Part shown: one piece after another, positions 3,269 to 64,000 of the stretch
Layout: each line of letters starts with the position of its first letter
How positions within the stretch are numbered: the first letter of the stretch is position 1
IMG/VR virus record: IMGVR_UViG_3300038443_002312
Location: 32,001 to 96,000 of that record
From: a virus
Length of the DNA: 64,000 nucleotides
Reading direction: 5' to 3' (one strand)
Program-made: the position numbers and the translations under genes
The notes under the pieces: generated by a model
Databases searched by the model: none
What the model saw: only the letters and a program-made list of their open reading frames with translations
What the model was told of the DNA's origin: nothing

Positions 3269-3511
3269 TTAGCGGTTGCCCGCCGCCGCGGCGTGGGCGG
3301 CGGCCAGTTCGGCCCGCAGCCGCAGGACCTCCTCGGCCAGGGCCGCCGCGTCGGCGTCCAGGGCGAACGTGTCGACCCCGCCCCGCCCGGCCCCTTCGGC
3401 TTTCAACCGGGACCGGGTCCACGCCACCCGCTCCCCGCACCGCTCGCGGCGGAACCGGTACGGGCCGAGGTCGACCTCGACCACCTCGTCGGGCTTGTTC
3501 GCCTGCGCCAT
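3269..3511 (-). CDS. Hypothetical protein
   Basis: ATG 3511 with GGAGG; fills gap in operon. Confidence 0.55.
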   Translation of the reverse strand: MAQANKPDEVVEVDLGPYRFRRERCGERVAWTRSRLKAEGAGRGGVDTFALDADAAALAEEVLRLRAELAAAHAAAAGNR

Positions 3512-3522
3512 CGCCCGCCTCC

Positions 3523-15990: not shown

Positions 15991-16032
15991 CGCGAACCTC
16001 CTGCCAGCCCGTTGGCGTCCCGCGGAACTCCG

Positions 16033-16743
16033 TCACGCCCCCGGGCCAGCCGGGCCCGCGCACGTCCGGCACACGAGCACGTGCTCCCGCCCCGCCGGAA
16101 TAATGACGTCCCCCGCCGTCGTCCGCTCGGGCGTCCGGGTGACCCACACCCCGCCGGCCAGGTCCTCTTGCCACCGGGATCGGCCGCAGCCCGCGCACGT
16201 GAACCAGCCGGGGAGGCGGCCGGGCGTCGTAAACTCGCCGCCGGCCGCCCGGATCGCGTCGAGGACCGCCGGGTCAGGGCCGATCGCCTCGACCACGCGG
16301 TCGACCTGGTGCCGGGCGAGGCCCTTCAGATCCTCCGGGTGGACCGGCGAGGCGTCGCGGCCCGCGAGCAGGCGGACCACGTGCTCCAGTTCCGCCCGCG
16401 GGACGAACGCCCGGCCCTGGGCCCCGGCGGTCCGCTCGGCCACCCGCTCCTCGACGAGCTTGTCCAGGAGCCCGTCGTCCGGGGCCCGCCCGGCGAGCAC
16501 GGCCAGGGCGAGGGCCTGGGTGTCGGTCAGCCGCCCGGCGTCGTCCTGGGCCAGGATCAGGTCGGCGGCCGCGATCGACTCGCCGGACCACACCCCGGCC
16601 CAGCCGACCGCCTTGACCCACCGCCACGCCGGCCCGTCGTTCACGGCGGCCCCGACCCCGACGGCCGCGAGGTGACACCCGCCGTCGTGCAGCCGGAAGC
16701 GGTAGACGCCGGGCGTCAGGGCGTTCAACTCCTCCCGGGTCAC
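16033..16743 (-). CDS. Paralog family member 4 (different N-terminus)
   Basis: LALAVLAG...FVPRAEL...IGPDPAVL...VCRTC. Confidence 0.7.
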   Translation of the reverse strand: MTREELNALTPGVYRFRLHDGGCHLAAVGVGAAVNDGPAWRWVKAVGWAGVWSGESIAAADLILAQDDAGRLTDTQALALAVLAGRAPDDGLLDKLVEERVAERTAGAQGRAFVPRAELEHVVRLLAGRDASPVHPEDLKGLARHQVDRVVEAIGPDPAVLDAIRAAGGEFTTPGRLPGWFTCAGCGRSRWQEDLAGGVWVTRTPERTTAGDVIIPAGREHVLVCRTCAGPAGPGA

Positions 16744-22505: not shown

Positions 22506-24136
22506 CACGCCGCCTCCAGGTCCGCCCACCCGAGTTTCACCCGCATGTCCGCCGCCGCGATCGCGATCCCCCACGCCACCGCCAAATCGTCCAGCAGCGG
22601 GGCCGGGGCCGCGAGCGTGTCCGCCTCGATCGTGATGATCTGGTCGTACAGGTCCCGGGAGTGCACCACGCACCGGTTCGCCGTGATCCGGCTCGCCGCC
22701 CGGTGGTACATGAGTTCCTTACTCCGCCCGTCCGTCGCCCACCCCTTGCCCCCGTCCGGCCCGTTCCCCAGGCTCGCGTCGTAGTCCCCCCGGTCCCGGA
22801 CCGTGTGCCACCACGTGATGAACGCGTGCCCGTGGTTGTTCCGCTCCGGCATCACCCGGCACTTCGCCCCGGCCGGCTTCCGGTACCAGTCGCACAGGGC
22901 CGCCGAGTAACTGGCCAGGACCTCCGGCGTGTACTTCCCCCGGACGATCGCCACCTCCTCGCCCGACTCGTCGTCCACCACCACGAGCGCCGAGTCGCAC
23001 GACGTCCGCAGGCCCTGGGCCGGGTCCCCGCCGATCGTGTACGCCCGCCCCATCTCCGGCACCCGGTACACCCGGCACCCCTGCTGGTGCTGGTACCCCG
23101 GCAGGGACGCCGGGCACCGGGCCTCGCCCTTCCCGTAGGTGGGGTGGTCCCACGCCGCCTTGGCCCGCGCCAAGGGCACCGGGTCCAGCGGCACGAAGAC
23201 GTGCGAGCACCGGTCCTCCGGGAACCGCTTGTCCAACTGCGAGGCCGCCAGGGCCTCCTCGGGCGTGGCCGGGTACGACTCGTGGACCGCGTCCAGACTG
23301 AACGTCGTCGCCTTGCTGTGGGCCACCTGAGCCCGGTACCACGCCCGGGTCCGCTCCGGCCGCGCCCACCACGGCAGGAAGCACGCCGCCGCCCCCGGCA
23401 GGTTCCCCGCCCGGGCCTCCCGCCACAGGTTCTTGAACACGCTCCCCGGGGCCTTCTTGTCCACCCGGGAGATCAGGAACAGTTTCCCCCCGTTGTCCAC
23501 CGTCGGCTTGACCCGGGACAGGAGCACCTCCAGCTTCGGGATCAGGTCGCACTCGTCGATGACGGCGACCGAGGCCGTGTACGAGTCCCCGGCACTGGTC
23601 GGGAAGGCCCGGGCCGTCGCCCCGTTCGCCAGGAACCACTGGTGCCCGCTCTCCCCCTGGAGCTTCCCGCCCCGGGTGAACGACCCCGCCGGGTGCAGCC
23701 ACGGCGGCAGGCGGACGAACATCCCCTTCAGCCGCCGCATCATCTCCAGGGCCTCGGTGTCCCGGAGGGAGAACAGCAGGGCCGACGTCTGCGGGACGAA
23801 GAGGAGCATCCACAGCACGAACGCGAGGGCCAGCCAGGTCAGCCCGATCTGCCGGGGCTTGAGCACGTACACCTGGGAAAATCGCCTAAACTTCTGGAGC
23901 GGGTCGATCTGGGCCGGCCACAACTCGAACCGCACCCAGTCCCCGCCCACCGACTCCCCGAGCGACGTCGTCCTCGCCGCCACCTCGATACTGCAATACG
24001 TGCTGACGAAGTACCACGGGCTCGTCGCGCACTTCGCCGCCTCGGCCGCGACCACCTCCGCGGCCGGCTCGTCGTCCCACGCCGCCCAACTGGGGCGGAC
24101 GTACCCCGCCACGGCCTCCTTACCCCGGGTCGCCAT
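22505..24136 (-). CDS. terL: Terminase large subunit
   Basis: Q-motif WPAQ, Walker A LKPRQIGLTW, Walker B VIDE, nuclease IGGDPAQG...D...ERNNHG...DDLAVAW. Confidence 0.9.
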   Translation of the reverse strand: MATRGKEAVAGYVRPSWAAWDDEPAAEVVAAEAAKCATSPWYFVSTYCSIEVAARTTSLGESVGGDWVRFELWPAQIDPLQKFRRFSQVYVLKPRQIGLTWLALAFVLWMLLFVPQTSALLFSLRDTEALEMMRRLKGMFVRLPPWLHPAGSFTRGGKLQGESGHQWFLANGATARAFPTSAGDSYTASVAVIDECDLIPKLEVLLSRVKPTVDNGGKLFLISRVDKKAPGSVFKNLWREARAGNLPGAAACFLPWWARPERTRAWYRAQVAHSKATTFSLDAVHESYPATPEEALAASQLDKRFPEDRCSHVFVPLDPVPLARAKAAWDHPTYGKGEARCPASLPGYQHQQGCRVYRVPEMGRAYTIGGDPAQGLRTSCDSALVVVDDESGEEVAIVRGKYTPEVLASYSAALCDWYRKPAGAKCRVMPERNNHGHAFITWWHTVRDRGDYDASLGNGPDGGKGWATDGRSKELMYHRAASRITANRCVVHSRDLYDQIITIEADTLAAPAPLLDDLAVAWGIAIAAADMRVKLGWADLEAA

Positions 24137-24457
24137 TCAACCCATCTCCCGCAGGGCCGCCTCGTACACCTTCACCAGCCCGTCCCGGTCGGTCGGCTCG
24201 TCCCCCCGACAAATGGCCAGGACCGCCTGCCGGGCTTCGAGCAGGGGCCAGTCCGTTGGCAGAACCCGGTCCCCGAACGGGTCGGCGAAAAAGGCCGCGT
24301 CCGCCGTCGCCTCGTCGTCGGCCATCCCCTTGGCGGCCGCGAGGCAGCACCGCAGGCAGTACGAGCCCGCCCCGGCCGGGCACGTCTCCGGGTGCGGGTC
24401 GCCCCCGTCCCGGGCGACCGCGAGGGCCAGTTCCACCACCCGCCGGGCCGTGGTCAT
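24137..24457 (-). CDS. Hypothetical protein
   Basis: YCLRCC; abuts terL. Confidence 0.55.
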   Translation of the reverse strand: MTTARRVVELALAVARDGGDPHPETCPAGAGSYCLRCCLAAAKGMADDEATADAAFFADPFGDRVLPTDWPLLEARQAVLAICRGDEPTDRDGLVKVYEAALREMG

Positions 24458-26133
24458 TCCGGGACCACCTCGACCCAGTCGGTCCGGGTCGTGTACGCGT
24501 CGAGCCCGCCGGACTCCTCCGCCCGCAACCGGGTCATCCGCCCCGGTTCCGGCGACTCGGCCACCCGGTACACCGGCCCGCCCCGGCTCGTCCGTACCCG
24601 GGTCCCGACCGGCACGTCTTCGAGGGCGAAGAGTCGCGTGGTCTCCGCCCCGGCCGTGACGTCCTTCGGCACCGGGTAGACCATCGCGCCTTCCCCGATG
24701 CAGGCCCTGACGTTGTGCCGGAGGTTGACCAGTTCCAGGACCCCCGGGCCCCGGTCACTGGCGGGACCGATCACCCGGAACACCGTCTCTTTCTCCGGCG
24801 ACTCGCGGAACCAGTCCCCCGGCTTCAGGTCGCCCGCCCGGACCGCCCGCGGGCCCGCGGTCGGCTCACCGGAACCCGACTTCGTCTCACCGGCCGGTCC
24901 GCCCGCGGGTTCCGGGTAGACGACCGCGTCCGCCCCGACCCGCGTCTGCCGGTTCTCGGCGAGGTTCTTCACCGCCACGACGGCCGGGAGGTCGAGCGGG
25001 CCGACCACCTCGAAGACCGTCTCGGCCCCCGGGGAGCAGCGGAACCAGGCGCCCGGCTCCAGGTCGCGGGCCCGGACCGCCCCGGCCGGCAGGGGACTCG
25101 GCTCGGCCGGCCACGCCCCCGCCCCGATCACCTCGACCCGCGTCTCGGGGTCCATCCACAGCGTCCCGCGGTCGGGCACGTGGACCTCGACCCCCCTCAG
25201 GGAGTCGTACCCGCGGACCTTGTACACACCCCCGCCCGGCCGGGTGCGGACGACCGCCCCGGCGTCCAGGTCGCCGATCCGCACCAGCCCGGCGGCGTCG
25301 GGCCCGACCGCCGTCTTGTCCCGGGCCGGGGCGGCCTCCCTCGTCGCCTCGTGGACGACCTCGACCACCGTGTCGGTCGACTCCCAGGAGACGCCGCCGT
25401 CCGGGGCGGTCAGTTTGACCCCCTTCAGGGAGTCGTACCCGCCGACCGTGCTGGCCGGGTCGCCCGGATTGCCCCGGACCGCCGACCCCAGGGGCAGGTC
25501 GCCGAGCCGGGCCCGCCGCCCGGTGGGGAAGGGGACCTCCGCCTCGGCCCGGGCTCGCCGCCTGCCAAGCGGGATTTCCGCCTGGACCCGACCGAGCAGG
25601 TCCGCGGCCAGTTTCACGCCGTCCCGGGACGCCTGCTCGACCCGCTCCTTCGCGGCCTCGACCGCCGCCAGAGCGGCGGGCACGTCCGCCTTAGCCGCCC
25701 CGACCACCTCGACGAACCGGCCGGCCGAGGCGTGCATCAGCGGTTCCCCGCCGGGCGTCTCCATCTGGACGTAGTTGGGCATCCCCTGGACCGCCGCCAC
25801 CCGCTCGACCTCGCCGCCCGCGAGCGTCCGGACCAGCGTCCCCGGCGGGAGCTTGCCGAGGACCGCGAACAGGGGGGCGGCGGGCGCGGGGGCCGCCGCC
25901 TCCGGGACGACCCGCAGGGCCGCCGCCGGGAGGGTCGCGAGCCGCACGCCCCCGTCCGGCCCCATCCAGGCGACCGCCACGTCCCCGGCCGCGAGCCGCA
26001 CCGGTTCGACCCCGCCCTTGCGGTGGTTGTACAGGGTGTCCCCCGCCACCGCCGAGACGACCATCCGGACCCCGCCGTCCTCGGGTTCCGAGGCCAGCCG
26101 GACCACCACCCCCTTCGCCACCCCGTCGCTCAT
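24454..26133 (-). CDS. Protein of ~6 tandem SH3/KOW-like modules
   Basis: Repeats LGKLPPGTLVR, LGDLPLGSAVR, IGDLDAGAVVR, ARDLEPGAWFR, AGDLKPGDWFR, LEDVPVGTRVR. Confidence 0.7.
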   Translation of the reverse strand: MSDGVAKGVVVRLASEPEDGGVRMVVSAVAGDTLYNHRKGGVEPVRLAAGDVAVAWMGPDGGVRLATLPAAALRVVPEAAAPAPAAPLFAVLGKLPPGTLVRTLAGGEVERVAAVQGMPNYVQMETPGGEPLMHASAGRFVEVVGAAKADVPAALAAVEAAKERVEQASRDGVKLAADLLGRVQAEIPLGRRRARAEAEVPFPTGRRARLGDLPLGSAVRGNPGDPASTVGGYDSLKGVKLTAPDGGVSWESTDTVVEVVHEATREAAPARDKTAVGPDAAGLVRIGDLDAGAVVRTRPGGGVYKVRGYDSLRGVEVHVPDRGTLWMDPETRVEVIGAGAWPAEPSPLPAGAVRARDLEPGAWFRCSPGAETVFEVVGPLDLPAVVAVKNLAENRQTRVGADAVVYPEPAGGPAGETKSGSGEPTAGPRAVRAGDLKPGDWFRESPEKETVFRVIGPASDRGPGVLELVNLRHNVRACIGEGAMVYPVPKDVTAGAETTRLFALEDVPVGTRVRTSRGGPVYRVAESPEPGRMTRLRAEESGGLDAYTTRTDWVEVVPE

Positions 26134-26245
26134 GGTGCCCTCACGCCGTGGATTCCGAGATTGTAACGGAGTGCCGTAGGCCACCCTCATCAACCGCAGC
26201 CCGCCAAAGGCTGATCGGTTAAGTTGCCATCAAGCAGGCAGCAGA

Positions 26246-27094
26246 CTACGCCGTGGAAGATCCCGTTTCCCAACTCCGCCCGCAGGCGTCACACCGGACC
26301 TCCTGCGCGTCCCCGCCCTGCGGGCCGGTGTCGGACCGGGCGTACACCTTCCCCGCCGCCCGGCAGAACCGGCACGGTTCGTCCTCCAGCCACGCCCAGT
26401 CCCCGAACCCGGCGGCCGCGGTCTCGGCCGCCGGGCGGAGGGGGGTCGCCCCCGCCGGCACGAACCGCCCGTCGCGGAACTCCGTCAGGGGCCGGACCCA
26501 CGTCCCCGACGCCCCGCAGTAGACCACCACCGGGGTCATATCCTTCTCCAGGACCCCGCACGTGAGGACCTTGTACTCGCCCCCGGACTTCACGTGCCGC
26601 CACAACGACTCCGGCGGCGGCCCGTCCCGGGCGATCACCGCGTGCACCGCCGGCAGCGGGTCGCCGGCCAGCGGATTGGCAGGTGTGGCCGGGGGCGCGG
26701 CCCCCAGCACCCCCCGGACGGCCCGGGCGGCGGCCAGGTCGGCCGCCTCGACCGTCGGGTACTCCCGCCACCCCGGTCCCCGCTCGGTCCCGCCCCGGAG
26801 GGCCCGGAAGACGGCGGCCGGCAGGCACGGGTACGCGTCCCCCGGGTAGATCGTGGGGTCGTACCAGGCCGAAACGGTCGTGTACGGGCTCCGGGCCCGG
26901 ACCGCCCGGGCGAACGCCTCGGGCGGGTCGAGCCGGTCGACCTGGTCCGCCCGCTCCCGGTCCGCCCGCAGCCGGGTCACCTCGCCGAGCAATTTCAAGA
27001 CCAGCCGGGACTTGCGGCACCCGACCGCCGACAGTTCCACGCTCCCGGCCCGGAGTTCTTCTTCCTCGCCGGCCGTGATGTTCTCGTCGCTCAT
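26246..27094 (-). CDS. Multi-module protein with DUF1653-like domain and C-terminal Zn ribbon
   Basis: WRHVKSGGEYKV...VVVY...WVRPLTEF.DGRF; CRFC...CDAC. Confidence 0.7.
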   Translation of the reverse strand: MSDENITAGEEEELRAGSVELSAVGCRKSRLVLKLLGEVTRLRADRERADQVDRLDPPEAFARAVRARSPYTTVSAWYDPTIYPGDAYPCLPAAVFRALRGGTERGPGWREYPTVEAADLAAARAVRGVLGAAPPATPANPLAGDPLPAVHAVIARDGPPPESLWRHVKSGGEYKVLTCGVLEKDMTPVVVYCGASGTWVRPLTEFRDGRFVPAGATPLRPAAETAAAGFGDWAWLEDEPCRFCRAAGKVYARSDTGPQGGDAQEVRCDACGRSWETGSSTA

Positions 27095-27113
27095 CGCCTT
27101 GCCCGTCAAGAGG

Positions 27114-27557
27114 TTAGTCCGGCAGGTCGCCCGCCGAATCGTAGGTGAACGCGCCCTCGCGGGCACCTTCCAAGCACCCGGCGTACCAGAGGAAGACGCC
27201 GAGCAAAAGCCCCGCCTGGCGGACCGAGTCGACGTTGTGCGGCAGGAGCACTTTCCCGCCGCGCGGGGCCCCGATCCCGTCGGCGAGGTCGAGCCCGCAG
27301 GCGTTGCCGGGCACGGTGATGTGCTCCGGCCCCCACTCCCCGCCCGCCACCCGGACCGCCAACGGGTCGTCCGTCTCGAACCCGAACGCCTTGAGCCACA
27401 CCGGGGCCAGTCGCCGGGCCGCCGCCCGGATCAGGTCGGGGGTGAGCCGCGCCCGCGCGACCTCGGCCCGCCACGCCGGGTAGAGGCGGACGGCGGGGCC
27501 GCAGACCCCGCGGGCCGCGTCCGGGTGCCAGTCGATCCCGTAAAGTTGTTCGGGCAC
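27114..27557 (-). CDS. Hypothetical protein
   Basis: EWGPEHITVPGNACGLD...PHNVDS. Confidence 0.55.
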   Translation of the reverse strand: MPEQLYGIDWHPDAARGVCGPAVRLYPAWRAEVARARLTPDLIRAAARRLAPVWLKAFGFETDDPLAVRVAGGEWGPEHITVPGNACGLDLADGIGAPRGGKVLLPHNVDSVRQAGLLLGVFLWYAGCLEGAREGAFTYDSAGDLPD

Positions 27558-27613
27558 GGCCACTCCGCCTTGTACACCGCCCACGCCGCACGGGTGGTAC
27601 GTGACCACCCGGG

Positions 27614-28090
27614 CTACCGGTTCGCGTCCCGCCACTCGTCCACCCCACTGTTCGGGGCCACCGGGTCGGGCCGGGCGGCGGCGAGCAGGTCGCGGAGGTC
27701 CGCGTTCTCCCGCCGCAGGGCGGCGACCTCGTTCTCCAGCCCCAGCAGGTACGCCCACAGGTCGGCCATCACCGCCCGGGTTCGCTTGACCAGGTCCGCC
27801 CCGTTCACCGCCCCGTCCAGCCGGACCCGCTTCTTCTCGGCGGTCTCGGCCTGGGCGAGGCGGTGGACCGCGTCGTTCAGCCGCCCCAACTCGCTCGCCT
27901 TCGCCGCCAGGGCCGCCGTCAGCCGCCGCCGCAGCGGGGTGTCCGCCTTGGCGAGCCCGGCGACCCGGACCTGGATCTGGCGGTACTCCTCGCTCGCCCG
28001 GAGCCGGCGGGACTTGGCCTCGTCCTGGGTCGCGGGCTCTTTCCAGTCGCAGGGGTCGCCGACGTCGGGCGTCTTCGGGGTCTCGGTCAC
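27614..28090 (-). CDS. Coiled-coil hypothetical protein
   Basis: Heptad-rich; coupled start. Confidence 0.55.
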   Translation of the reverse strand: MTETPKTPDVGDPCDWKEPATQDEAKSRRLRASEEYRQIQVRVAGLAKADTPLRRRLTAALAAKASELGRLNDAVHRLAQAETAEKKRVRLDGAVNGADLVKRTRAVMADLWAYLLGLENEVAALRRENADLRDLLAAARPDPVAPNSGVDEWRDANR

Positions 28091-28479
28091 AACTCGTCTC
28101 GCTCGCAGGTCCAGCCGAACAGCACGCGCAGCACCAGGCGGCGGAGCCAGTTCGGCCGGGGCAGGAGTTCGCTCCCGGGCAGGACGACCGGCCGGCCGGC
28201 CGTGTCCCGGCCGGTCACGACCACCCACCCGGTCGGCCGCGGGGGCCGGTCCAACCGGCCCCCGGCGTGGGTCATCGGGCCGGCCGGGTCCAGCCCGACC
28301 GTCGCCCCGGCCGGGTCGGCCAGCCCGGCCGACGCCAGCCGCCCCCGGGCGAAGTCCTCGACCAGCCCGACCGTCTTGTCCCCGCACGCGGGGCACGGGT
28401 CGGCGGGCGTCGATGCGCGGCAGGTGACGCACCACCGCGGCGAAACCGGCCGCGGCGGGACGGGGACTTCGGGGCTCAC
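28087..28479 (-). CDS. Zn-ribbon hypothetical protein
   Basis: CVTC...CPACG. Confidence 0.55.
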   Translation of the reverse strand: MSPEVPVPPRPVSPRWCVTCRASTPADPCPACGDKTVGLVEDFARGRLASAGLADPAGATVGLDPAGPMTHAGGRLDRPPRPTGWVVVTGRDTAGRPVVLPGSELLPRPNWLRRLVLRVLFGWTCERDEL

Positions 28480-28507
28480 GGGGACTCCGGGGCGACCGGT
28501 TGGCGAA

Positions 28508-29506
28508 TCACTGGCGGCCGGACTGGGCCCGCTTGAGGCCGGCCTCGAACTGCTTGACCGCGTCGATCGCGAACGAGATGGCCGGGCCGGCCCAGTCCGT
28601 CACGTTCGCCGAGTAACCGGCCCGGACCCCGGCCTGGGTCACGTGGGCGAGCAGGGCCCCGGGCTGGCACAGCCTCTGGCCGGCCAGCTTGGAATCGTAG
28701 TCCCGCAGCCGGGCGTGCAGTTCCTGGCCGGTCGACGGGGCCGCCCCGGGCAGGCCGGGCCTGGGGAACTTCCGCCCGAACTGGGCGAACAGGTCCAGGA
28801 CCGCCTTGTCGACCGCGGTCGACACCAGCCCGCGGGCCTTCTCGCCCTCGAACGCGTGCCACAGGGCCTCGAACCCGGGCCGGTCCCGGAGGGCGGCGAA
28901 CTGGTCCTGGTAGGCGCTGATGGCCAGGCGGTCGTCGTCGCTCATCCCGCCCGCGGGCGCGCCCGCCGTCGCCCCCTGGGCGGCCGGGTTCGCCCCCTGC
29001 CCCTGCCGCGGCGGGCCGGCCGAGTCGACCGCCCCCCTCCGCTGCTTGCCCGGGTCGGCCCAGTCGGGGAGCTGCGGGATCTGGGTGATCTGCTTCTTCT
29101 GGGGGTCGTAATCGACCCACACGGGCGGCAGGCGGTACAGGTACCGGCCGATGCCGAACTTGACCGCGGCCCGCTTGAGGGCGTCACTGAAACTCGCCTT
29201 GAGCCGGTCGCCGCCGTCGGGCTGCTCGCTCGGGGAACCGACGTCCTCCTTGGTCACCCACTCGCCGTCGACCCGGACGGACAGTTGGCAGACGACGCAC
29301 CCGTCGTTCAGGACCTCGTAGTGGTCCTTCCAGTTCTCCGCCCCGAGCACGTCATCCAGCCGCTCCTCGACCAGCCGGGCGTCCACGTACGGGACGGCCA
29401 TGGCCCGGTTGTTCTTCGCCGCCTGCGGCTTCCACTTGAGTTGCCGGGCGTCAAAGAACGCGGCCAGGGCCCTCATCTTCTCGGCGGTCGTCGTCCCCTC
29501 GCTCAT
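28508..29506 (-). CDS. Rad52/Rad22 (Sak-like) single-strand annealing protein
   Basis: YVDARLVEERLDDVLG..NW; KASFSDALKRAAVKFGIGRYLY. Confidence 0.9.
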   Translation of the reverse strand: MSEGTTTAEKMRALAAFFDARQLKWKPQAAKNNRAMAVPYVDARLVEERLDDVLGAENWKDHYEVLNDGCVVCQLSVRVDGEWVTKEDVGSPSEQPDGGDRLKASFSDALKRAAVKFGIGRYLYRLPPVWVDYDPQKKQITQIPQLPDWADPGKQRRGAVDSAGPPRQGQGANPAAQGATAGAPAGGMSDDDRLAISAYQDQFAALRDRPGFEALWHAFEGEKARGLVSTAVDKAVLDLFAQFGRKFPRPGLPGAAPSTGQELHARLRDYDSKLAGQRLCQPGALLAHVTQAGVRAGYSANVTDWAGPAISFAIDAVKQFEAGLKRAQSGRQ

Positions 29507-55898: not shown

Positions 55899-56528
55899 TC
55901 AGGCGGCGGCCGCCGGTTTGCGGCGGCGTTTGCGGGGGCAGAGGGCCAGGGCGGCGAGGTAGGCGCGGACGTGCTCGGTCGGGTGGCCGTGCTCGTCGAG
56001 CCAGTCCGCGGCCGCGCCGATGCCGGCGGCGTCGTCCCAGGTGACGTGGGCCCCGCCGCCGGGGGCCGCGAAGAACGCGGCCCGGATGGCCGGGGTGAGT
56101 TCGGCCATCACCTGGGCGGCGAGCAGGGCCCCGCGGAACACCTCCGACGGGGTCGCCTTGGCCCAGCGGACGGCCGCCGTGCCGTAGCCGAACGGGTAGG
56201 CCGAGCGGTCGCCGCGGAGGCTCCGCGGGGCCGTCATGCGGGCCACGTGGATGAGCACGTACCGGGTGCGGGTCGCCGGGTCGGTGAGCCACGCGTAGCC
56301 GGCGACGGTGCACGTCCGGTGGGGGACCGGGAGGTCGGCCGCGTGGGCGTGCCGGGTCGCGACCCCGTGGCCGCTCGACGCCATGTGGAACTCCGGGTGC
56401 CGCCACTCGGCCGGCAGGACGTCCAGGGCCGCCAGCCGGTTGGCGTGGCCGGCGTTGGCCAGCTCGCACATCCGGCGGAGTTCCGCGTTGACGGTTTCGA
56501 GCGTCGGATTGACCAGTAGTTTCACCAT
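55899..56528 (-). CDS. Hypothetical protein with C-terminal TIGR02996-like motif
   Basis: DDAAGIGAAADWLDEHG; spans the CCC/GGG boundary. Confidence 0.65.
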   Translation of the reverse strand: MVKLLVNPTLETVNAELRRMCELANAGHANRLAALDVLPAEWRHPEFHMASSGHGVATRHAHAADLPVPHRTCTVAGYAWLTDPATRTRYVLIHVARMTAPRSLRGDRSAYPFGYGTAAVRWAKATPSEVFRGALLAAQVMAELTPAIRAAFFAAPGGGAHVTWDDAAGIGAAADWLDEHGHPTEHVRAYLAALALCPRKRRRKPAAAA

Positions 56529-56595
56529 GTGTGGACCTCCGGAACACGTTCAAGACAGGCGACCGGACGGCGGTAAGGCGGTGCGGTCGGTGCGG

Positions 56596-56838
56596 CTAGG
56601 CCGCGCAGTAAGGCTTCCAGTTCCTGACTTGCTCTCCGTTGAACCATCGTCCTTCATCGTGGTACAGATCGAATAGCCAACCGGATGACTTGAGAGATTC
56701 GGCCTCTCGCTTCGTATCGACCGTGGCCAGAGTTCCGCCGGACTTGTTACGCAGCCTCCATTTCCGGCCGTGTTTTTGGACGGTCCAACCGGACGGCGGA
56801 TCGGCGTCATGTTCTTCCGGTGTTGCGTGCAACGCCAT
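56596..56838 (-). CDS. Early small hypothetical protein
   Basis: CCTCGCGAGG RBS cassette. Confidence 0.7.
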   Translation of the reverse strand: MALHATPEEHDADPPSGWTVQKHGRKWRLRNKSGGTLATVDTKREAESLKSSGWLFDLYHDEGRWFNGEQVRNWKPYCAA

Positions 56839-56899
56839 GTGTGGACCTCGCGAGGAAGAGAACAGGACCGGCCGGCGGACTTCTCCGCCGGCCGGCCGA

Positions 56900-57148
56900 T
56901 CACACTTGCTCGAATCCGAAGTAGTCGGCGCCGCCACGGCCATCCTGACAGTCCACTACGCTGTACGTCTCATCCGGTTCGTCCGAGTTGAGGTACCGGA
57001 TGATTAACCACCAGCGGCCATGTTCAAATAGCGTGTCGAACCGGCGGTTTCTGGACTGGCGGCCGAACTGCGCGACGGCGGCGCGTCGGACCGCGGTTTC
57101 CGTCTTCCGGTCGTCAACTTCCGACGGTAGCGGCTTGCTGGTCGTCAT
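56900..57148 (-). CDS. Early small hypothetical protein
   Basis: RBS cassette; FEHGRWW..TYSVVD. Confidence 0.7.
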   Translation of the reverse strand: MTTSKPLPSEVDDRKTETAVRRAAVAQFGRQSRNRRFDTLFEHGRWWLIIRYLNSDEPDETYSVVDCQDGRGGADYFGFEQV

Positions 57149-57212
57149 GTGCGGACCTCGCGAGGATAGGACCAGGCGGCCGACCGGCAGTGAGGCACGG
57201 CCGGCCGATCGG

Positions 57213-57482
57213 CTAGTAACCGGCCATGCCGGTCGTATCTCGGCCGAGTCGGTTCAAGAGGTGATAGACCGCGTTCGCGGCATAGTTCGGTTGCATCCAA
57301 ACGCCTTCCTCCAGGAAGCGTTCGGTAGCGTACAACTCCGGAAGGACGACCGTTTCCGGCTTCTCGCCGATTCGGATGTACAAGTCATTGCACCAGTCGG
57401 CAACCGTCGGCGCCGACCGTTCGTAGTATTCGGCAATCGCGGTTAGCTGCGCTTTGATGGACTCTATCCAGTGTTGCGCCAT
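57213..57482 (-). CDS. Early small hypothetical protein
   Basis: RBS cassette. Confidence 0.7.
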   Translation of the reverse strand: MAQHWIESIKAQLTAIAEYYERSAPTVADWCNDLYIRIGEKPETVVLPELYATERFLEEGVWMQPNYAANAVYHLLNRLGRDTTGMAGY

Positions 57483-57548
57483 GTGCGGACCTCGCGAGGA
57501 TGGAACGAAGTCCGGCCGGTCCGCGGTGGCGGATTCCGGCCGGTGCGG

Positions 57549-57815
57549 TCATTCGTCGGCCTGGTCGTCCGGTTCGTCCGGTTCCACCAGGTCCGTTTCC
57601 GCGGTCTGATCAATCAGGACAAAAGAGGTGTCGTCGTCCGTGGCGCAAATGTGCAACTCGCCGGAACCGGTCCGCGAGTTGTACCGATAGGTAATCCGGA
57701 TCGAAACACCTGAAACGGTGGCGCCGTCGGCCGTCCGGAACGGCAGGAAATCCACTACGGCGGAGCTGTCCGGCTGTTCGACCGTCAGTCGCGGACTCTT
57801 GCGGTCGTCTGGCAT
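57549..57815 (-). CDS. Early small acidic protein
   Basis: RBS cassette; D/E-rich C-terminus. Confidence 0.65.
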   Translation of the reverse strand: MPDDRKSPRLTVEQPDSSAVVDFLPFRTADGATVSGVSIRITYRYNSRTGSGELHICATDDDTSFVLIDQTAETDLVEPDEPDDQADE

Positions 57816-57877
57816 GTGCGGACCTCGTGAGGAAGACAGGCGGACGCACCGGCCGGCGGCCGGACGCGTCCGAGGAC

Positions 57878-58165
57878 TCAGGCCACGCAATCGGCCGGAA
57901 TCCGGAACTCGGACCGGAACGGCGCGTCGTCCAGGTCGGCCGACCAGTCAGACCGGCTGACGTCTCCGGCCTGGTTGCAGTGCGCGACGCGGACGGTCAC
58001 ACCGGCCGCGATCAGGCCGCGACAATACCATTCACAGTCACGAAATGAGCCTTGTACCAACCGCCGCGCGTGGCGGCCGGACGCCTTGAGGCGGTCGCCT
58101 TTGTTCACGGCAAACACGTTGGCGATGCCAACCTGGTAGACCAAATAGGCGGTGTGGACCGGCAT
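57878..58165 (-). CDS. Early small hypothetical protein
   Basis: LVYQVGIANVF...HCNQAGD. Confidence 0.7.
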   Translation of the reverse strand: MPVHTAYLVYQVGIANVFAVNKGDRLKASGRHARRLVQGSFRDCEWYCRGLIAAGVTVRVAHCNQAGDVSRSDWSADLDDAPFRSEFRIPADCVA

Positions 58166-58233
58166 GACGGAACCTCCGGAACGGAATCGAAAAAGGCGGC
58201 CGGCCGGCGGCGAGGCACGGTCGGCCGAGAAGA

Positions 58234-58437
58234 CTACTTGCGATACTGGCCGAGTTCGCACACCACTTGCCTAGTGTGATCGGTCAGGCTCGCTTTACAC
58301 GTCGCTTTGGTTCCGGAGACGACCAGGACCGGCTGACCGTCACGCATTTCCATAAGCGCGAACTTGTGCGCGGCCGGAATGGTGCCGATGTTCTCGGACA
58401 GCCACCGCGCCGGAGAATTCGGAGCGCCGACAGGCAT
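58234..58437 (-). CDS. Early small hypothetical protein
   Basis: RBS cassette. Confidence 0.65.
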   Translation of the reverse strand: MPVGAPNSPARWLSENIGTIPAAHKFALMEMRDGQPVLVVSGTKATCKASLTDHTRQVVCELGQYRK

Positions 58438-58536
58438 AGCGAACACCTCGCGAGGATAGGACCAGTCGACCGGACGGCAGTGAAGCCGGTCCGGCACAGG
58501 CGGCCGGCCGGCGGTGAAGCCGGTCCGGCCGAGAAC

Positions 58537-59076
58537 TCAGACGGCGGCCGCCATCAGGACCGCACCGGCCGCGGCACGTGCCGCGAGGTCGGTTTCGCGC
58601 CAGGACCACGGCGCCGCCTCCAATTCCGGCCACGGCTCGCGGCGCCACTGACGCGCGGCGCCGCTCCGGCACCAGGCCGCGTACTTCGCGGCCGGTTTGT
58701 GCCGCGCGTGGATTTCCTCGATCACGGCATCGCACAATTTCTTGGCGGCACACTCCGACCAGGCCGGATGCTCGCACGCCTGGTAGGCGTAACAGCGCGC
58801 GAGGTTGTACAGTTCGGCCGCGGTCGGCCGGTAGCCGCGGTCGGTCCACGTGTACGCTTCCAGGTGATCCGGCGATCCTGGCAGTTCGTCCGGCCGGTCG
58901 CGCGGATACCGGTAGGCCACGGACCGGACGTTCTCGGCCGCGAGCATCGCGCCGAGCGAGTCGCGGCCGATGACGGCGCGGCGGTCGGCCGGCCGGATGA
59001 TTCCGTCCGACGTGCCGTCGAGGATGCCGGTCACGAGTAGGTCAATGTGCACGTTGCTGACGACGAACGCACTCAC
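58537..59076 (-). CDS. Conserved phage/plasmid hypothetical protein
   Basis: MSAFVVS..HID.LV...ENVRSVAYRYP...CYAYQACEHP.W. Confidence 0.75.
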   Translation of the reverse strand: MSAFVVSNVHIDLLVTGILDGTSDGIIRPADRRAVIGRDSLGAMLAAENVRSVAYRYPRDRPDELPGSPDHLEAYTWTDRGYRPTAAELYNLARCYAYQACEHPAWSECAAKKLCDAVIEEIHARHKPAAKYAAWCRSGAARQWRREPWPELEAAPWSWRETDLAARAAAGAVLMAAAV

Positions 59077-59174
59077 GGCGGAGACCTCGCGGAACACCGG
59101 CCGCCGGACTGGCGGCCGGAAGCGGCCGGCGGCACTCCGGAGAGCGCCGCCGGCCCGGTTTTGGGCCGGCCGGT

Positions 59175-59585
59175 CTAGTTGTCCGAAACGACGTGCGCGA
59201 ACGCCTCCGCCACGGCCGGCGGCCAACCGGACCACGTGGCGAGCGCCGCGAGGTCGGCCGGCTTACCGGACAGCGCGGCGCGGTAGGCCGCGTTCACCTC
59301 CGGAATCGAGCCGGTGAAGAACCGCGCTTTCTCGGACTGCCACGTGCGGCCGTCGGCGCCGGTATAGCTCGTGTGCGTCGGCACGTCCGGCGCGTCGAAT
59401 ACGACCACGGCGGCCGCGTGGCCGGACCTCTCCGGCCACGCGGCGATCGACCGGACGGCGGTGCCGTCGTCGGTCGGAACCACCAGGATCGTGGCGCCGT
59501 ACCGCGCGTCCGGATTCTTCTGGCCGTAGATTTCTTTGACGGCGGCGCCGGTCGCCGTGGTCTTCTCGCGGATGATCACTTTCAT
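59175..59585 (-). CDS. Early hypothetical protein
   Basis: ORF track; pyrimidine tract upstream. Confidence 0.65.
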   Translation of the reverse strand: MKVIIREKTTATGAAVKEIYGQKNPDARYGATILVVPTDDGTAVRSIAAWPERSGHAAAVVVFDAPDVPTHTSYTGADGRTWQSEKARFFTGSIPEVNAAYRAALSGKPADLAALATWSGWPPAVAEAFAHVVSDN

Positions 59586-59709
59586 CGGACGGACTCACCA
59601 GGAAGGAAAGGAACACCGGAACTGGAGGACTCCGCCACGTGGCGGAAGGCCGGACGGCCGGCCGGTAGGCCGGACCGCCGGAAGTGCCGCCGGTCCGCTG
59701 GCGCCGTAG

Positions 59710-59925
59710 CTACGGCGCCGTTGGACCGGCCGGCCGATCGGACCTGGAGCCGTCGCCGGACTGGCTCTTTCTAGACCGATTGCGAGAGAAGAACGCGTTG
59801 ATTTGCGCGAGCGACCGGCCGCCGTCGCTCTCCGGATGGTAGACGCCGGAACCGAAGCAGGCCGGACAGTCCGGATCGCCACAACACGGATACACCTGGT
59901 CGGCCGGTAGCGTCTGGTCGTCCAC
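59710..59925 (-). CDS. Early small Cys-cluster protein
   Basis: PCCGDPDCPACFG; RBS cassette. Confidence 0.6.
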   Translation of the reverse strand: MDDQTLPADQVYPCCGDPDCPACFGSGVYHPESDGGRSLAQINAFFSRNRSRKSQSGDGSRSDRPAGPTAP

Positions 59926-59964
59926 GTGCGGACCTCGCGAGGAAGGAAGGACCGGCCGGCGCGA

Positions 59965-60231
59965 CTACTTAGCGCCGCGCGTCCGGTCCAGGAGCTTCAA
60001 GGCCGTGTCGATCATGCGCGCCGTCGGCATCGCGCGGTATCGCGCCTGATTGTCCGCGCCTAGCTTGTCGTGGACACCGACCACCAGGCCGGCCGTTGTC
60101 AGGTCCACCGTGATACCGTCGATTTTCGCGTAACTCTTGCGGTCCACAACCGACCGGAACGCGGCCACGCGCTCCTCTCCGGTCGCGCACGTATGGACCG
60201 GCGTTCCGCCGGTCCGCTTGACGGTTGACAT
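59965..60231 (-). CDS. Early small hypothetical protein
   Basis: IDGITVDLTTA..VV.VHDKL...NQ; RBS cassette. Confidence 0.7.
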   Translation of the reverse strand: MSTVKRTGGTPVHTCATGEERVAAFRSVVDRKSYAKIDGITVDLTTAGLVVGVHDKLGADNQARYRAMPTARMIDTALKLLDRTRGAK

Positions 60232-60298
60232 GTGTTCACCTCGCGAGGAAGGAAGCCAGGACCGGCCGGCGGACTTCTCCGCCGGCCGGCCGGTCCGG

Positions 60299-61675
60299 TC
60301 AGTTCCGGACGGCCGCCGTGGCCAGCTGGTACGCGGTCTGTTTGATGTCGTCTCCGGCGCCGGAGATGACGCTTTCGAACCGCGCCGACCGCTTGGCTTC
60401 CTCGGACCTCGCACGGCTCTTGCCGCCGAGTTTGCCGTGGTCCACCGATTCGGTTACCGCGTTGAACGCGGACCAGGCCGAACCGCGGATGCCGCCGACG
60501 CCGTTGGTGTCGGAGTGGTAGCGGTCGAGCACGTCCTCTAGCAGTTCCTTCCGGTGCTTGGCTTCCGCCTCCAACCGCTTCTTTTCGTACTCCTGCTCCG
60601 CACGCGTCACCTTCAGAGTTCGCGCCACCGCGTCAATGCCGGTTTCGAGCTGCGCCGCCGTGATGTCGCACACCGAATCGAGTAGGCCGTTGAAGTAGGC
60701 CAGCGGTTCCATCGGCGTTCGCGCCATCACTTCGGCCGACTCGCGGAACTCCTCGAACTCCTCCACCGCGAGGCCGAGCGCTTCGGCGGCCGCCTTGCGC
60801 TTCGCCTGGAGGTTGCCGGTGTGGCGGATCGTAATGCCTTTTGACCGGTCATCCTTGTCGGCCATCCGCAGCGTGTTCGCGCAGACCACGCGGTGCGCCG
60901 TCGGAAAGCACTTCGCAGCCTCCGTGCCGTCGTGCGCGTTCGTGAACAGCGCGAACGGCTTGATTTCGTCTCCGGCCGTGACACGGAACGCCTGCTTTGG
61001 CAGGTGTACCAGCATCCACACTTTCTTGCCGCCGTGGATCGCGCCGGCGGTTTCGTACCTGGCGCCGAACCGCTCTAACAGGCCGTCAAGGAACTTGAAC
61101 GCGTCCTCGTTCTGGAACGGTTGGTACCGGCCGCCGACCGAACCGAGATAGGCGCCGGTGTCGTCGCGGCTGATCGCGAACGTGTCCGGCGCCTGGATGA
61201 CCTCGCCGCGCGCGTTGGTGAACGTCATGTCTCGCTTGCTCACCTTCCAGTTCAGGCCGGCGAGCGTGATTGCGTCGGTGGACGTTACCGCCGACTCGAC
61301 GTTCACGCCGAGACCGTGCCACGGCGCCGCACCGGCCACCATCACCGATATCCGGCCACCGGACGTGTCCAGGCCGGCGCGGCGGATGGCGGCCGACATG
61401 ATGACGGCGCGGTCATTCTCCGGTAGCGCCATCACCAGCGGATGGATTCGCGCCTGATAGACCGCGTCGGACTCGCCGGACTTCCGGCGCAGTTCCTGGT
61501 ACGCGCCGCACCGGATCATTTCGCCAGGATCGGACAGACCGGCGACGTAGTTGATGCTGGTGATGTCGCGGTTGGCCGTGATGATCCGCGGCCCGGAGGC
61601 GGCCGGACCGGACGCCGGTTCGGACGTGCGGCCGGCGACGGTCGCGGCGAGCGCGGCGTTAATGAGATCGGACAT
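60299..61675 (-). CDS. DUF932 (TIGR03299-like) phage/plasmid protein
   Basis: PWHGLG, AGLNW, YQPFQN.DAF, YETAGA..GG..VW, NAHDG, RVVCANTL, IRHT, AW.AFNAVTE. Confidence 0.9.
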   Translation of the reverse strand: MSDLINAALAATVAGRTSEPASGPAASGPRIITANRDITSINYVAGLSDPGEMIRCGAYQELRRKSGESDAVYQARIHPLVMALPENDRAVIMSAAIRRAGLDTSGGRISVMVAGAAPWHGLGVNVESAVTSTDAITLAGLNWKVSKRDMTFTNARGEVIQAPDTFAISRDDTGAYLGSVGGRYQPFQNEDAFKFLDGLLERFGARYETAGAIHGGKKVWMLVHLPKQAFRVTAGDEIKPFALFTNAHDGTEAAKCFPTAHRVVCANTLRMADKDDRSKGITIRHTGNLQAKRKAAAEALGLAVEEFEEFRESAEVMARTPMEPLAYFNGLLDSVCDITAAQLETGIDAVARTLKVTRAEQEYEKKRLEAEAKHRKELLEDVLDRYHSDTNGVGGIRGSAWSAFNAVTESVDHGKLGGKSRARSEEAKRSARFESVISGAGDDIKQTAYQLATAAVRN

Positions 61676-61839
61676 TGTGGAACCTCCGGATAAGGACCGG
61701 CCGGCCGGTCCGCGGCACCACGCCACGGTTACCGGCCGGCCGAGTGAGGCGACCGGCGATTAGGCCGGTCGCGACCTCGCGAGGAAGGATACAGGCGACG
61801 GACCGACCGGCCGGCCGGCCGGCCGAGTCCGCCGAGTGG

Positions 61840-62103
61840 TCAGACCGCGACCTCGCGCAACCGAGCGTACAGGTTGCGGAGTTGTCGGCGGTATTGCGTC
61901 TCGTTCGGCCGGACGTCCGGCGAGCGGACGGACCGGAAGCCGCCGTACTCCATCGTCCAATCGGCGAACGCGCGGACCATGCCGTCCGCGTGCGCCAGGT
62001 ACACTTTCGGCCGGTCTTTCAGGTCCTGGACCAGGTGTTGCATTTCGTCAAGGTCTTGGTTCGCGTAGGTGTGGACACGCGTAACCGGAATCGCGGTGAG
62101 CAT
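61840..62103 (-). CDS. Early small hypothetical protein
   Basis: CCTCCGGAGG RBS. Confidence 0.7.
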   Translation of the reverse strand: MLTAIPVTRVHTYANQDLDEMQHLVQDLKDRPKVYLAHADGMVRAFADWTMEYGGFRSVRSPDVRPNETQYRRQLRNLYARLREVAV

Positions 62104-62182
62104 CGGTAGACCTCCGGAGGAGCGAGCAAGGCGGCCGGTCCGCCGGACTGGCGGAGTCGGCCGAGTGCCAACCGGTTGGCAG

Positions 62183-62392
62183 TTACCGCACGTGCTCCAG
62201 AGTGCAGAGCACCGGCGGAGTTCCGAGGACCACGGCGGCCGATATGCTCTGACACTCGATCCATTCGTCCGAGTGCCACGGCTGCACTCGGATCGTTCCG
62301 TCCGAGTGCCGGAGGACCGGCCGGCCGTTGTCCAGTGTGTGCACGATTTCCATGACGTTCACCTCAGTATCCGAGGACTCGAAACCGGACAT
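62183..62392 (-). CDS. Early small hypothetical protein (alternative start ~62353)
   Basis: RBS. Confidence 0.6.
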   Translation of the reverse strand: MSGFESSDTEVNVMEIVHTLDNGRPVLRHSDGTIRVQPWHSDEWIECQSISAAVVLGTPPVLCTLEHVR

Positions 62393-62514
62393 AGGCTAGG
62401 ACCTCCGGAAGCGTCACATAGCGGAACACTAGCACGGCCGAATCCTCCGGCGGACCGGCCGCACCAGGCGACCGCGAGCGGACCGGCCGGCCGGTAAGCC
62501 GAACCGGACCAGGT

Positions 62515-62781
62515 TCACACCTCTTTCGCTTCCGACCGGCCGACGTTCTTCCAGGATTGCACGTCTAGAATGCAGTCGCGCGACCGTTCCGACGGCGGAT
62601 AGATGCGGAAGAGGCGGCCGGAATACGGATGCTCAAACATGCCGTCCTTCACCGTGGCCACGAAATCGTCGCGGTGGAAGTAGGCCGAACCGGTCACCTG
62701 GTTGTTGGCGATTTCGAACGTGACCGTGATATCGCGCCGCTCCGGCGCCGTGATACCGTCGTCGAACCGAACTACCAGCAT
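62515..62781 (-). CDS. Early small hypothetical protein
   Basis: RBS cassette. Confidence 0.7.
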   Translation of the reverse strand: MLVVRFDDGITAPERRDITVTFEIANNQVTGSAYFHRDDFVATVKDGMFEHPYSGRLFRIYPPSERSRDCILDVQSWKNVGRSEAKEV

Positions 62782-62842
62782 GGCGGAACCTCGCGAGGAA
62801 GGAAGGCGGCCGGCCGGCGGTGAGGCACGGTCGGCCGATTGG

Positions 62843-63037
62843 TCAGTTAACCGCCTTATAGCAGTTGCACGGAAACTGATGAGCGATCCGGTTTAACCGG
62901 TCGTACTCCGCCTCTCCGACCAGGCGGACCAGGCCGGCGGCCGAAATCGTGTCAGACGTGCCGTCGGAGAACTTCACCGAAAAACCGGACCAGGACCAGG
63001 ACCAGAGGATATGCGTAACCGTCGGAGTGGTCGGCAT
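62843..63037 (-). CDS. Early small hypothetical protein
   Basis: RBS cassette, ATG 63037. Confidence 0.65.
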   Translation of the reverse strand: MPTTPTVTHILWSWSWSGFSVKFSDGTSDTISAAGLVRLVGEAEYDRLNRIAHQFPCNCYKAVN

Positions 63038-63102
63038 GGCGTACACCTCGCGAGGAAGGAACGAAAGCGGACCGGCCGGCGGCGAAGCCGGACCGGACCA
63101 GG

Positions 63103-63282
63103 TTAATCAATCGGAACGACCTCGGTTTCCGCTCTCCAGTGTTTCCGGTAGAACGCCGATAGCTCGTTTGCTTTGTCGGCATCGAACCGGACTGCCGTTT
63201 CGCTGTTGCCGATCCGCTCGCCTCTCTCGTGAATGAACCACGTCTGTCCTTCAGCAGTCACTTTTACGATGAACTGTCGCAT
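63103..63282 (-). CDS. First early gene, 59 aa (absent from ORF track)
   Basis: MRQFIVKVTAEGQTWFIHERGERIGNSETAVRFDADKANELSAFYRKHWRAETEVVPID*, hand-translated. Confidence 0.6.
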   Translation of the reverse strand: MRQFIVKVTAEGQTWFIHERGERIGNSETAVRFDADKANELSAFYRKHWRAETEVVPID

Positions 63283-63318
63283 GAAACGGACTCTTTAGAG
63301 TGAAGGAATACAGGAAAG

Positions 63319-63384
63319 GCATCCGTTCCGGAATCGAACCGGACCGGCGGCCGAAACCGCCGGAGCGCCAACCGCTCGGATTGC
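63319..63384 (-). ncRNA. tRNA-like cloverleaf in early leader (not a canonical tRNA)
   Basis: T-arm TCCGG-TTCGATT-CCGGA; D-like AGCG-GTTGG-CGCT; 7-bp stem with 6-nt loop; GCA(A)TCCG/CGGATGC closing stem. Confidence 0.5.
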
Positions 63385-63743
63385 TCGCAAGCGAGCGTGC
63401 CAGACAGGCGACTCACCGGCCGCCTGTCTTGTGTTGTGGACGTCGTATCCGGCCTGTGGCGCCGGACAGCGGACTAGAGGTTACACACCTGATTTGCCAC
63501 CGCACGTGATTCCGCAGACTCTTTCCGGACCTGTGCGAGCGTCCGGCCAACCGACCGGTTTCGAGCAACGCGGCACACCTCTACCGGCTCTTGTGAGCCG
63601 TCTTAGTGTGTTCCACAACCGGCGGACCTGTGCGAGTGGTTTCGAGATGTCAAAGATCGGCGTGCCGACTGGCGGTTACCGCGTGCGGCCTACTCGGCCG
63701 GTCCTGTCATTCCGACCAGGCCGTTCGCCGCACCGGTGTAGAG

Positions 63744-63775
63744 GAGTTTATACTAAACTCTCTCTCTCGTGTCAA
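63744..63775 (-). promoter_or_regulatory. Strong sigma70 early promoter TTGACA-N17-TATAAA with inverted repeat GAGTTTA-tac-TAAACTC over the -10
   Basis: -35 at 63770-63775, -10 at 63747-63752. Confidence 0.85.
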
Positions 63776-64000
63776 CCGGTCCTGCCAATTTTTTGTCAGG
63801 CCGGTTTGTCGCGGCCGGCCGGTTTGCGGACGGCCGGCCGCGGCGAGAGAAGACAAAGCACGGCGCGTGCCGTTCGGCCGAATCTTGCCAATAAATTGTC
63901 GGACCGGCCGGTTTCGCGTTATACGCTCGTCTGGCGGCCGACCGGCCGCGGCCGCAGCTGACCACGGTCCGCGGCCGACCGGACGCCACGCGTGCGTTAA

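Follow-up and report, generated by a model that had tools for sequence, protein, structure and literature searches.

We report here on a 64,000-nucleotide stretch of viral DNA, referred to throughout as the window, which corresponds to bases 32,001-96,000 of a single viral contig of 115,673 bp, IMG/VR record IMGVR_UViG_3300038443_002312. Our main finding is that a block of this phage genome has been purged, almost to completeness, of one three-letter word, GGG on either strand (GGG/CCC), with which the rest of the genome is saturated. The purge is specific to this word, acts on the DNA itself, reaches as far as the choice of amino acids, and coincides with the module of early genes that depends on host RNA polymerase. 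An earlier note on the window had described the depletion as a 7.6-kb block; the block is real, but it extends over 9.95 kb and runs 2.3 kb past the window end (Table 1).

Over the full zone only five GGG/CCC runs were observed. The expected number is 708 from base composition, 488 under a first-order Markov model that respects dinucleotides, and 876 from the frequency outside the zone, while shuffling synonymous codons with the zone's own codon usage gives 203 +/- 11. Our recount of positions 56,398-64,000 returned exactly the four runs of three or more G or C listed there (56426, 59154, 59163 and 61592). Density in this interval drops from 47.1 to 0.26 per kb for CCC and from 38.0 to 0.13 per kb for GGG; about 85 GGG/CCC sites per kb are found in the rest of the phage. 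The zone is internal to the contig, and word density is normal on either side.

No other 2- to 4-mer forms a significant desert anywhere in the genome, and among the 4- to 6-mers that do not contain GGG/CCC, none is depleted within the zone, which is therefore not the product of a general purge of restriction sites. (As a side observation, 4.8 kb at genome positions 23753-28559 lack ATGG/CCAT, a marginal gap with a log10 P of about -4.4, corrected for the number of gaps.) G+C (GC) content does fall, from 74.5% for the contig to 65.8% in the zone, where the earlier note had seen no drop, but this is not the cause: the 185 nt of non-coding DNA to the right of the border have a similar GC content (64-71%) and yet contain 6-7 GGG/CCC per 100 nt. 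GG doublets and GC-rich hairpins are still abundant inside the zone. The k-mer tests and the GC-matched flank thus agree with the proposal that neither a GC effect nor ordinary palindrome avoidance is at work. The avoidance is moreover symmetric between strands, and covers both arms of the zone, its genes, its hairpins and an untranscribed spacer of about 330 bp between divergent promoters. Since the word is absent from all of these, the constraint acts on duplex DNA and not on messenger RNA or decoding.

The imprint of this constraint is visible in codons and proteins. Outside the zone GGG is the commonest glycine codon (51%) and CCC makes up 27% of proline codons; inside, they fall to 1% and 0, respectively, and because both codons are so favored outside, the contrast exceeds what GC content implies. 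The share of CCC has moved to CCG, which rises to 92%, and not to CCT, which stays at 2%, which indicates a choice among synonyms rather than C-to-T decay. The word is also avoided across codon junctions: no codon ending in C precedes a proline in the zone, and a codon ending in G precedes a glycine in 1 of 169 cases. Where synonyms offer no way out, the protein itself has yielded. Dipeptides that force a GGG (M-G, and W followed by G, A, V, D or E) are absent from the 2,416 residues of the zone, against 23.8 expected, while outside it 207 are found for 256 expected. The glycine and proline content of zone proteins is lower by about one third; glycine, proline and alanine are down, and serine, threonine, isoleucine, glutamate and lysine are up. 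Comparison with homologues of two zone proteins, a DUF932 protein and a 179-aa protein, points in the same direction. DUF932 homologues have a mean of 2.5 GGG-forcing dipeptides and the zone copy has none; six of nine homologues in the 179-aa family have W-E or W-A where the zone protein has W-S; and at positions where W-V, W-A or W-E is found in many homologues, the two zone proteins carry Y-V or W-S.

The few exceptions are not random. All five internal ones, and one at the left edge, read GGGCC/GGCCC, and two of them form the two arms of a single hairpin. In the zone, 4,045 single substitutions, or 13.6% of all possible point substitutions, would create a GGG/CCC, and 13.4% of these 4,045 would do so in the GGGCC/GGCCC context, so that five out of five has a probability of about 4e-5. 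On the left side the first GGG outside this tolerated context lies at 56395; inside the zone there is none, for about 490 expected. As such a large fraction of substitutions creates the word, and none outside the tolerated context is seen, selection must be strong and current: a neutral drift of about 0.25% would already be expected to yield some non-tolerated sites. The GGGCC exception looks like the sequence specificity of an enzyme, or like shielding by an overlapping GGCC modification.

A pattern this odd calls for a check of the sequence itself, and its oddness is all that speaks for an artefact of assembly or sequencing, or for synthetic DNA, a reading to which we give practically no credence. 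Runs of A and T of up to 6 nt persist in the zone, which excludes homopolymer collapse, its open reading frames (ORFs) are intact, and the DUF932 protein aligns over its full length with its homologues. Logan unitigs of four further runs, from soil or rhizosphere, show no difference from the contig and span both zone borders; since these independent unitigs bridge the borders, chimeric assembly, which the earlier note had named together with homopolymer collapse as a possible undoing of the observation, is also ruled out. Metagenome runs of soil and rhizosphere, the work of about ten studies, contain the same sequence, and near-identical contigs exist according to protein clustering. No RNA dataset is found among the sequencing runs that carry it.

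The zone is the early module of the phage, dependent on host RNA polymerase and arranged as two divergent arms. Between the arms, two mirror-image units about 330 bp apart, each an operator (TGCCAA-W6-TTGTCA) followed by a -35 element, are marked by an inverted repeat of 27 nt (93% complementary) within a non-coding, repeat-bearing region of about 1 kb. The leftward promoter, P_left, was read directly and is close to the sigma-70 consensus, in agreement with the earlier note, which had placed the depleted region under a strong promoter of this type; a stricter promoter scan did not list it. The leftward arm (7.3 kb) consists of 16 small genes and a boundary ORF, and the rightward arm (2.2 kb) of five small genes and a boundary ORF. 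Almost all the remaining genes of the contig follow downstream of the left arm, in minus-strand orientation, and the phage encodes a sigma factor of its own, which leaves the zone as the part reliant on unmodified host polymerase. Most zone genes share a ribosome-binding site (RBS) embedded in the self-complementary sequence CCTCGCGAGG, followed by TCCGCAC-ATG (positions 56530-63100 and, beyond the window end, L003:1600-2160), and are separated by strong hairpins built solely of CCGG/GGCC units with a short T-rich tail. This combination looks like a common signal for translational or RNA-processing control of early genes; an exact search of viral contigs for the zone-type RBS word gave no match. 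P_left is separated from the first gene by an ORF-free leader of about 450 nt (63285-63740), in which a 14-nt sequence, CGGACCTGTGCGAG, is repeated directly and exactly at a distance of 97 nt and the minus strand carries the T-arm-like sequence GGTTCGATTCC. No transfer RNA or Rfam family was called in the zone, leader included.

Searches of the zone proteins against Pfam and PHROGs returned nothing but DUF932 and a weak ASCH match. The DUF932 protein is the product of the largest gene in the zone; the papers found to mention this domain assign no function to it, and the nearest DUF932 loci, a possible lead to the host and to a CRISPR-Cas PAM that the avoided word might equal, sit in contigs of metagenome-assembled genomes from unrelated phyla. 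The 179-aa protein belongs to a phage family found on at least 10 IMG/VR contigs of 61-69% GC (L019-L028). Its AlphaFold model is all-helical (predicted local distance difference test score, pLDDT, 68) and has no match in the PDB, and the ESM Atlas gave nothing.

Both borders of the zone look like the ends of a module. On the left, the edge lies inside a 209-aa ORF that may join a zone-type 5' piece to the gene that follows; an alternative internal ATG, with its own GGAG, is present at 56384, and the protein has no homologue but itself. Next to it lies a palindrome of the form GCCAR-N4-YTGGC, of which the contig has 41 fairly evenly spaced copies, for the most part 1.5-4 kb from one another and at gene junctions (window positions include 1680, 5085, 8589, 55330, 56431 and 62167), the intervals across the zone being 5.7 and 6.7 kb; it is probably the site of a phage DNA-binding protein. 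On the right, the coding signature in third-position GC content (GC3) of the last zone-type gene stops precisely at the border, where a junk-like tail takes over and a 23-nt imperfect hairpin ends. No direct or inverted repeats shared by the two borders flank the zone. One unitig ends 3 nt away from the right border, and a loose end lies at the left one; with so many such ends, both are within chance. The earlier note had taken an edge inside a gene as an argument for position-dependent selection; the edge does fall within the 209-aa ORF, but the argument is weaker than stated, since both edges resemble module ends.

Table 1. Features of the GGG/CCC-free zone and its borders (window positions unless stated otherwise; those above 64,000 lie beyond the window end)
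Feature	Position	Strand	Remarks
GGG/CCC-free zone	56,396-66,345 (genome 88,396-98,345)	both	9.95 kb
Left boundary ORF, 209 aa	55899-56528	-	Zone-type RBS, ATG at 56528; first 100-130 nt clean, rest dense in GGG/CCC
14-bp palindrome GCCAGCCGGTTGGC	56431-56444		Left border; 1 of 41 genome-wide GCCAR-N4-YTGGC copies
P_left	63747-63775	-	TTGACA (63775-63770), 17-nt spacer, TATAAA (63752-63747); near-consensus sigma-70
Operator-like TGCCAA-T6-GTCA	63783-63798; copy at 63886-63901		Upstream of P_left
Third operator copy	64126-64141		Mirror partner ahead of P_right
Left early operon, 16 small genes	56596-63282	-	GC-rich hairpin and zone-type RBS ahead of most genes
Gene starts of left early operon	63282, 63037, 62781, 62392, 62103, 61675, 60231, 59925, 59585, 59076, 58437, 58165, 57815, 57482, 57148, 56838	-	
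DUF932/TIGR03299 phage-plasmid protein, 458 aa	60299-61675	-	PF06067, E = 4e-50; largest zone gene
All-helical early protein, 179 aa	58537-59076	-	Phage family; invariant N-terminal MSA and CYAYQACE motif
Paired exceptions	GGCCC 59152-59156 and GGGCC 59163-59167		Two arms of one hairpin
Remaining exceptions	56426; 61590-61594; 64491; 64605		All GGGCC/GGCCC

The source contig is of the linear class and about 71% complete according to CheckV. It encodes an HK97-type capsid, a portal and a T4-type large terminase, as well as a helicase, a ParB-N protein, a Rad52 protein, a NUDIX protein, a LexA-type DNA-binding domain, a DEDDh exonuclease and the sigma factor mentioned above. Two amino-methyltransferases are also present: a D12 methylase and a beta-class enzyme, for which M.PvuII, an N4-cytosine enzyme, is the sole relative solved at full length. 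A Pfam scan of the gene set gave no TnpB/OrfB family at E <= 0.001, the ORF at genome positions 15069-16463 included. A 935-aa protein (genome positions 515-4379) combines a family-9 (heptosyl)glycosyltransferase with a TylF-type O-methyltransferase domain and adjoins a PfkB-family sugar kinase, both beside virion genes; the fusion may glycosylate virion proteins or, less likely, DNA. The phage has no close cultured relatives, its terminase and capsid matches being at most 36% identical. Queries with the terminase, the capsid, the ASCH protein and a 136-aa protein found no close relative in viral or genome collections, and megablast, run with the zone and with its flank on 50,697 phage records, gave no match.

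What could maintain such a purge? The reading that we prefer, although we grant it somewhat less than an even chance, is that the zone must work in the presence of an activity that reads GGG/CCC, nuclease-like and lethal at each site, with the rest of the genome absent or protected at that time. The early block would enter, or act, in the presence of a DNA-cutting or otherwise site-lethal activity of very short specificity, reading GGG/CCC but not GGGCC; the word-saturated remainder would not yet be in the cell, as with the first-step-transfer (FST) DNA of phage T5, or would already be protected. In support of this reading we count the absence of any non-tolerated site, the strand symmetry of the constraint, the reshaped proteins, the common context of the exceptions, the move from CCC to CCG, the T5-like size and layout, the step in unitig depth described below and the phage sigma factor for later genes. 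The purge, its specificity, its action on DNA, its trace in the proteins and the layout of the early module are observations, whereas stepwise entry or a terminal repeat, and the activity together with its owner, are inferred. As for the owner of the activity, we consider a phage enzyme slightly more likely than the host defense that the earlier note had proposed. An early nuclease of the phage's own would shred a GC-rich host chromosome at about every 12 bp, and a 3-nt word is ideal for this purpose; besides, viral enzymes with a specificity of 2-3 nt exist in the chlorella viruses. A host with a defense enzyme of 3-bp specificity would need to protect its own DNA at about 85 sites per kb. 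In its most explicit form, which we judge unlikely, the proposal is that the block itself encodes an early nuclease or nickase for bare GGG/CCC (not GGGCC) that shreds host DNA, and that the block, which would enter first and may be a terminal repeat, is immune because it lacks the word.

Several observations weigh against the idea of a site-lethal activity, besides the burden that it would place on a host enzyme. The zone has no recognizable nuclease, and neither an A1-like metallophosphatase nor an HNH protein was found on the contig. The zone reaches no contig end: it is internal to a linear, incomplete contig, so that no physical genome end, for which the earlier note had suggested looking, is found there. 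The loci of the distant relatives that could be retrieved, the comparison likewise suggested, have normal GGG/CCC density, both for the DUF932 protein (24-52% identity, L004-L018) and for the 179-aa family (L019-L028). When the same k-mer test is applied to the terminal repeat of T5, no desert of a short word emerges, which limits that analogy to architecture. Unitig depth, which counts in favor as far as it goes, is higher in the zone than in its flanks in run X6 (9.2-10.4 versus 3.8-4.4, about 2.4x) and in run X5 (8.3-11.3 versus 4.7-7.4, about 1.75x), and flank depth is flat across 70-77% GC; the step fits a collapsed terminal repeat without proving it, but could partly be GC bias, and run X7 has no such step (about 1x). 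Codon usage again counts against: codons ending in A or T amount to 18.9% in the zone even where a G or C ending is allowed, versus about 5% outside, which indicates a compositional history of its own and hints at a separate origin.

This last point leads to the view that the block was recombined in from a lineage under the constraint, and is a recent relic rather than a position-dependent adaptation. The earlier note had dismissed an imported module; the lower GC3 at unconstrained codons gives a hint of a separate history, and the zone does have its own RBS and hairpin style and borders that resemble module joints, the left one beside the genome-wide junction motif. We nevertheless give import a low probability. 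It would have to be very recent, as the absence of non-tolerated sites caps neutral divergence since the event at about 0.25%; no flanking repeats or donor-like sequence were found, the block carries the main early promoters of the phage, and the constraint would merely be shifted, unexplained, to another genome. Another view, also among the earlier suggestions, is that the phage modifies GGG/CCC, or one base of it, genome-wide and that the early module, lacking the word, stays unmodified, for the benefit of host RNA polymerase or to escape modification-dependent nucleases. The coincidence of the zone with the host-sigma early units fits this, given that later genes can use the phage sigma factor, and the GGGCC exception could reflect enzyme specificity. 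Candidate enzymes, albeit weak ones, are also on its side: the M.PvuII-like amino-methyltransferase, the D12 methylase, the GT9-TylF fusion and the PfkB kinase. Against it, the contig, at its level of completeness, has neither a TGT/DpdA (PF01702) nor a C5 methylase (PF00145), and its sugar genes, which lie among virion genes, may glycosylate proteins instead. Methylation normally does not block transcription, and the untranscribed promoter spacer is purged too; as for modification-dependent nucleases, they would still cut the remaining genome unless entry were stepwise. We thus regard a modification-free island as rather improbable.

The two remaining explanations are in our opinion very improbable. 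One is mutational erosion, in which a cytosine deaminase with a preference for CCC, like APOBEC3G, wears the motif out of the first-exposed or heavily transcribed DNA. A three-nucleotide context is indeed typical of deaminases, zone GC is lower, and the amino-acid shifts go in the GC-to-AT direction; but proline CCC was replaced by CCG and not by the deamination product CCT, neither CCT, CTC nor TCC is enriched on the plus strand, all ORFs are intact, and the purge is complete instead of standing at an equilibrium level. The other, with as little to recommend it, is a physical or replicative cause: G-quadruplexes, i-motifs, R-loop initiation, oxidation-prone GGG, or the removal from a terminal repeat of a CCC-type start triplet for primase, such that the repeat ends are kept single-stranded for concatemer formation. 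Primases recognize trinucleotides, for example CCC in the case of Aquifex DnaG, the avoidance is strand-symmetric and at the DNA level, a Rad52-type annealing protein is encoded by the phage, and a terminal repeat would fit the depth step. A single site, however, would cost little under any of these schemes, while the purge is total and overrides protein sequence, and GG doublets and GC-rich hairpins abound in the zone. Host DNA and the other 105 kb of the phage, moreover, tolerate dense G-runs, at the density of about 85 sites per kb already given, which makes the avoidance of G-run structures the least likely of the three mechanisms offered by the earlier note.

T5 and EcoRI provide a precedent, in principle, for local word avoidance in the phage DNA that acts first. 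A full-text literature search found no description of a GGG/CCC-free phage region, and we know of no description of a total purge of a three-letter word that extends to amino-acid choice. The implied agent would have an unusually short DNA specificity and be lethal per site; identifying it could add a frequent cutter, nuclease or nickase, to those known, or reveal a new principle of defense or counter-defense. Deserts of this sort may also serve as a marker, readable from sequence alone, of the vulnerable, first-exposed DNA of uncultured phages.

Among known systems, the classical avoidance of restriction sites in phages concerns words of 4-6 bp, mostly palindromic, and affects whole genomes. 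The zone resembles it in that selection would strip the target word of a nuclease from phage DNA, and differs from it in that the word is a non-palindromic pair of 3-mers, the avoidance is confined to one 10-kb block, and no other 4- to 6-mer is depleted. Deamination of the APOBEC3G type leaves footprints in CCC context in viral genomes, and the zone shares with these a trinucleotide context that includes CCC and a local depletion of the target word; unlike such footprints, its replacements are not C-to-T, and the host is bacterial. The frequent cutters and nickases of chlorella viruses, such as Nt.CviPII at CCD and R.CviJI at RGCY, degrade host DNA early in infection with specificities of 2-4 nt, and show that a viral nuclease specificity of about 3 nt exists. 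Unlike the present phage, in which no such nuclease gene is recognizable, chlorella viruses protect their own DNA by methylation rather than by doing without the word.

The closest parallel is offered by T5 and BF23 (Tequintavirus); the earlier note had also brought up DNA of the T5 type. According to its annotation, the left terminal repeat of T5 is 10.2 kb long and consists of two divergent operons of small genes driven from central promoters, with arms of 5.9 and 2.7 kb, followed by the injection stop signal. Of a stop signal of this type, a repeat-rich untranslated region with DnaA boxes, the zone offers no more than its repeat-bearing promoter region of about 1 kb. Size and layout agree with the zone described here, which likewise spans about 10 kb, or about 8% of the genome, with divergent operons of mostly small ORFan genes and host-type promoters. 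In T5, FST DNA has to act ahead of the arrival of the remaining genome; only FST DNA is vulnerable to EcoRI and CRISPR, and this DNA is without EcoRI sites (bioRxiv 10.1101/866236); how it survives the DNA destruction driven by the phage's own A1 is an open question (10.64898/2026.04.02.716235). A site-free FST region has been proposed as the solution, but not shown (bioRxiv 10.1101/866236; 10.64898/2026.04.02.716235). If the block studied here did encode a shredding enzyme to which it is itself immune, it would be a natural example of that solution and would reveal a new class of enzyme with 3-nt specificity; more generally, the zone bears on the way in which phages that degrade the DNA of their host avoid harming their own early DNA, which is unmodified. 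There are clear differences: the contig encodes no A1, A2 or dmp homologues and has no PF00149 metallophosphatase match, its terminase, capsid and portal are unrelated to those of T5, and the word avoided here is a 3-mer, avoided totally and with a context exception. The resemblance to T5 is thus one of working principle and architecture, and not of family membership.

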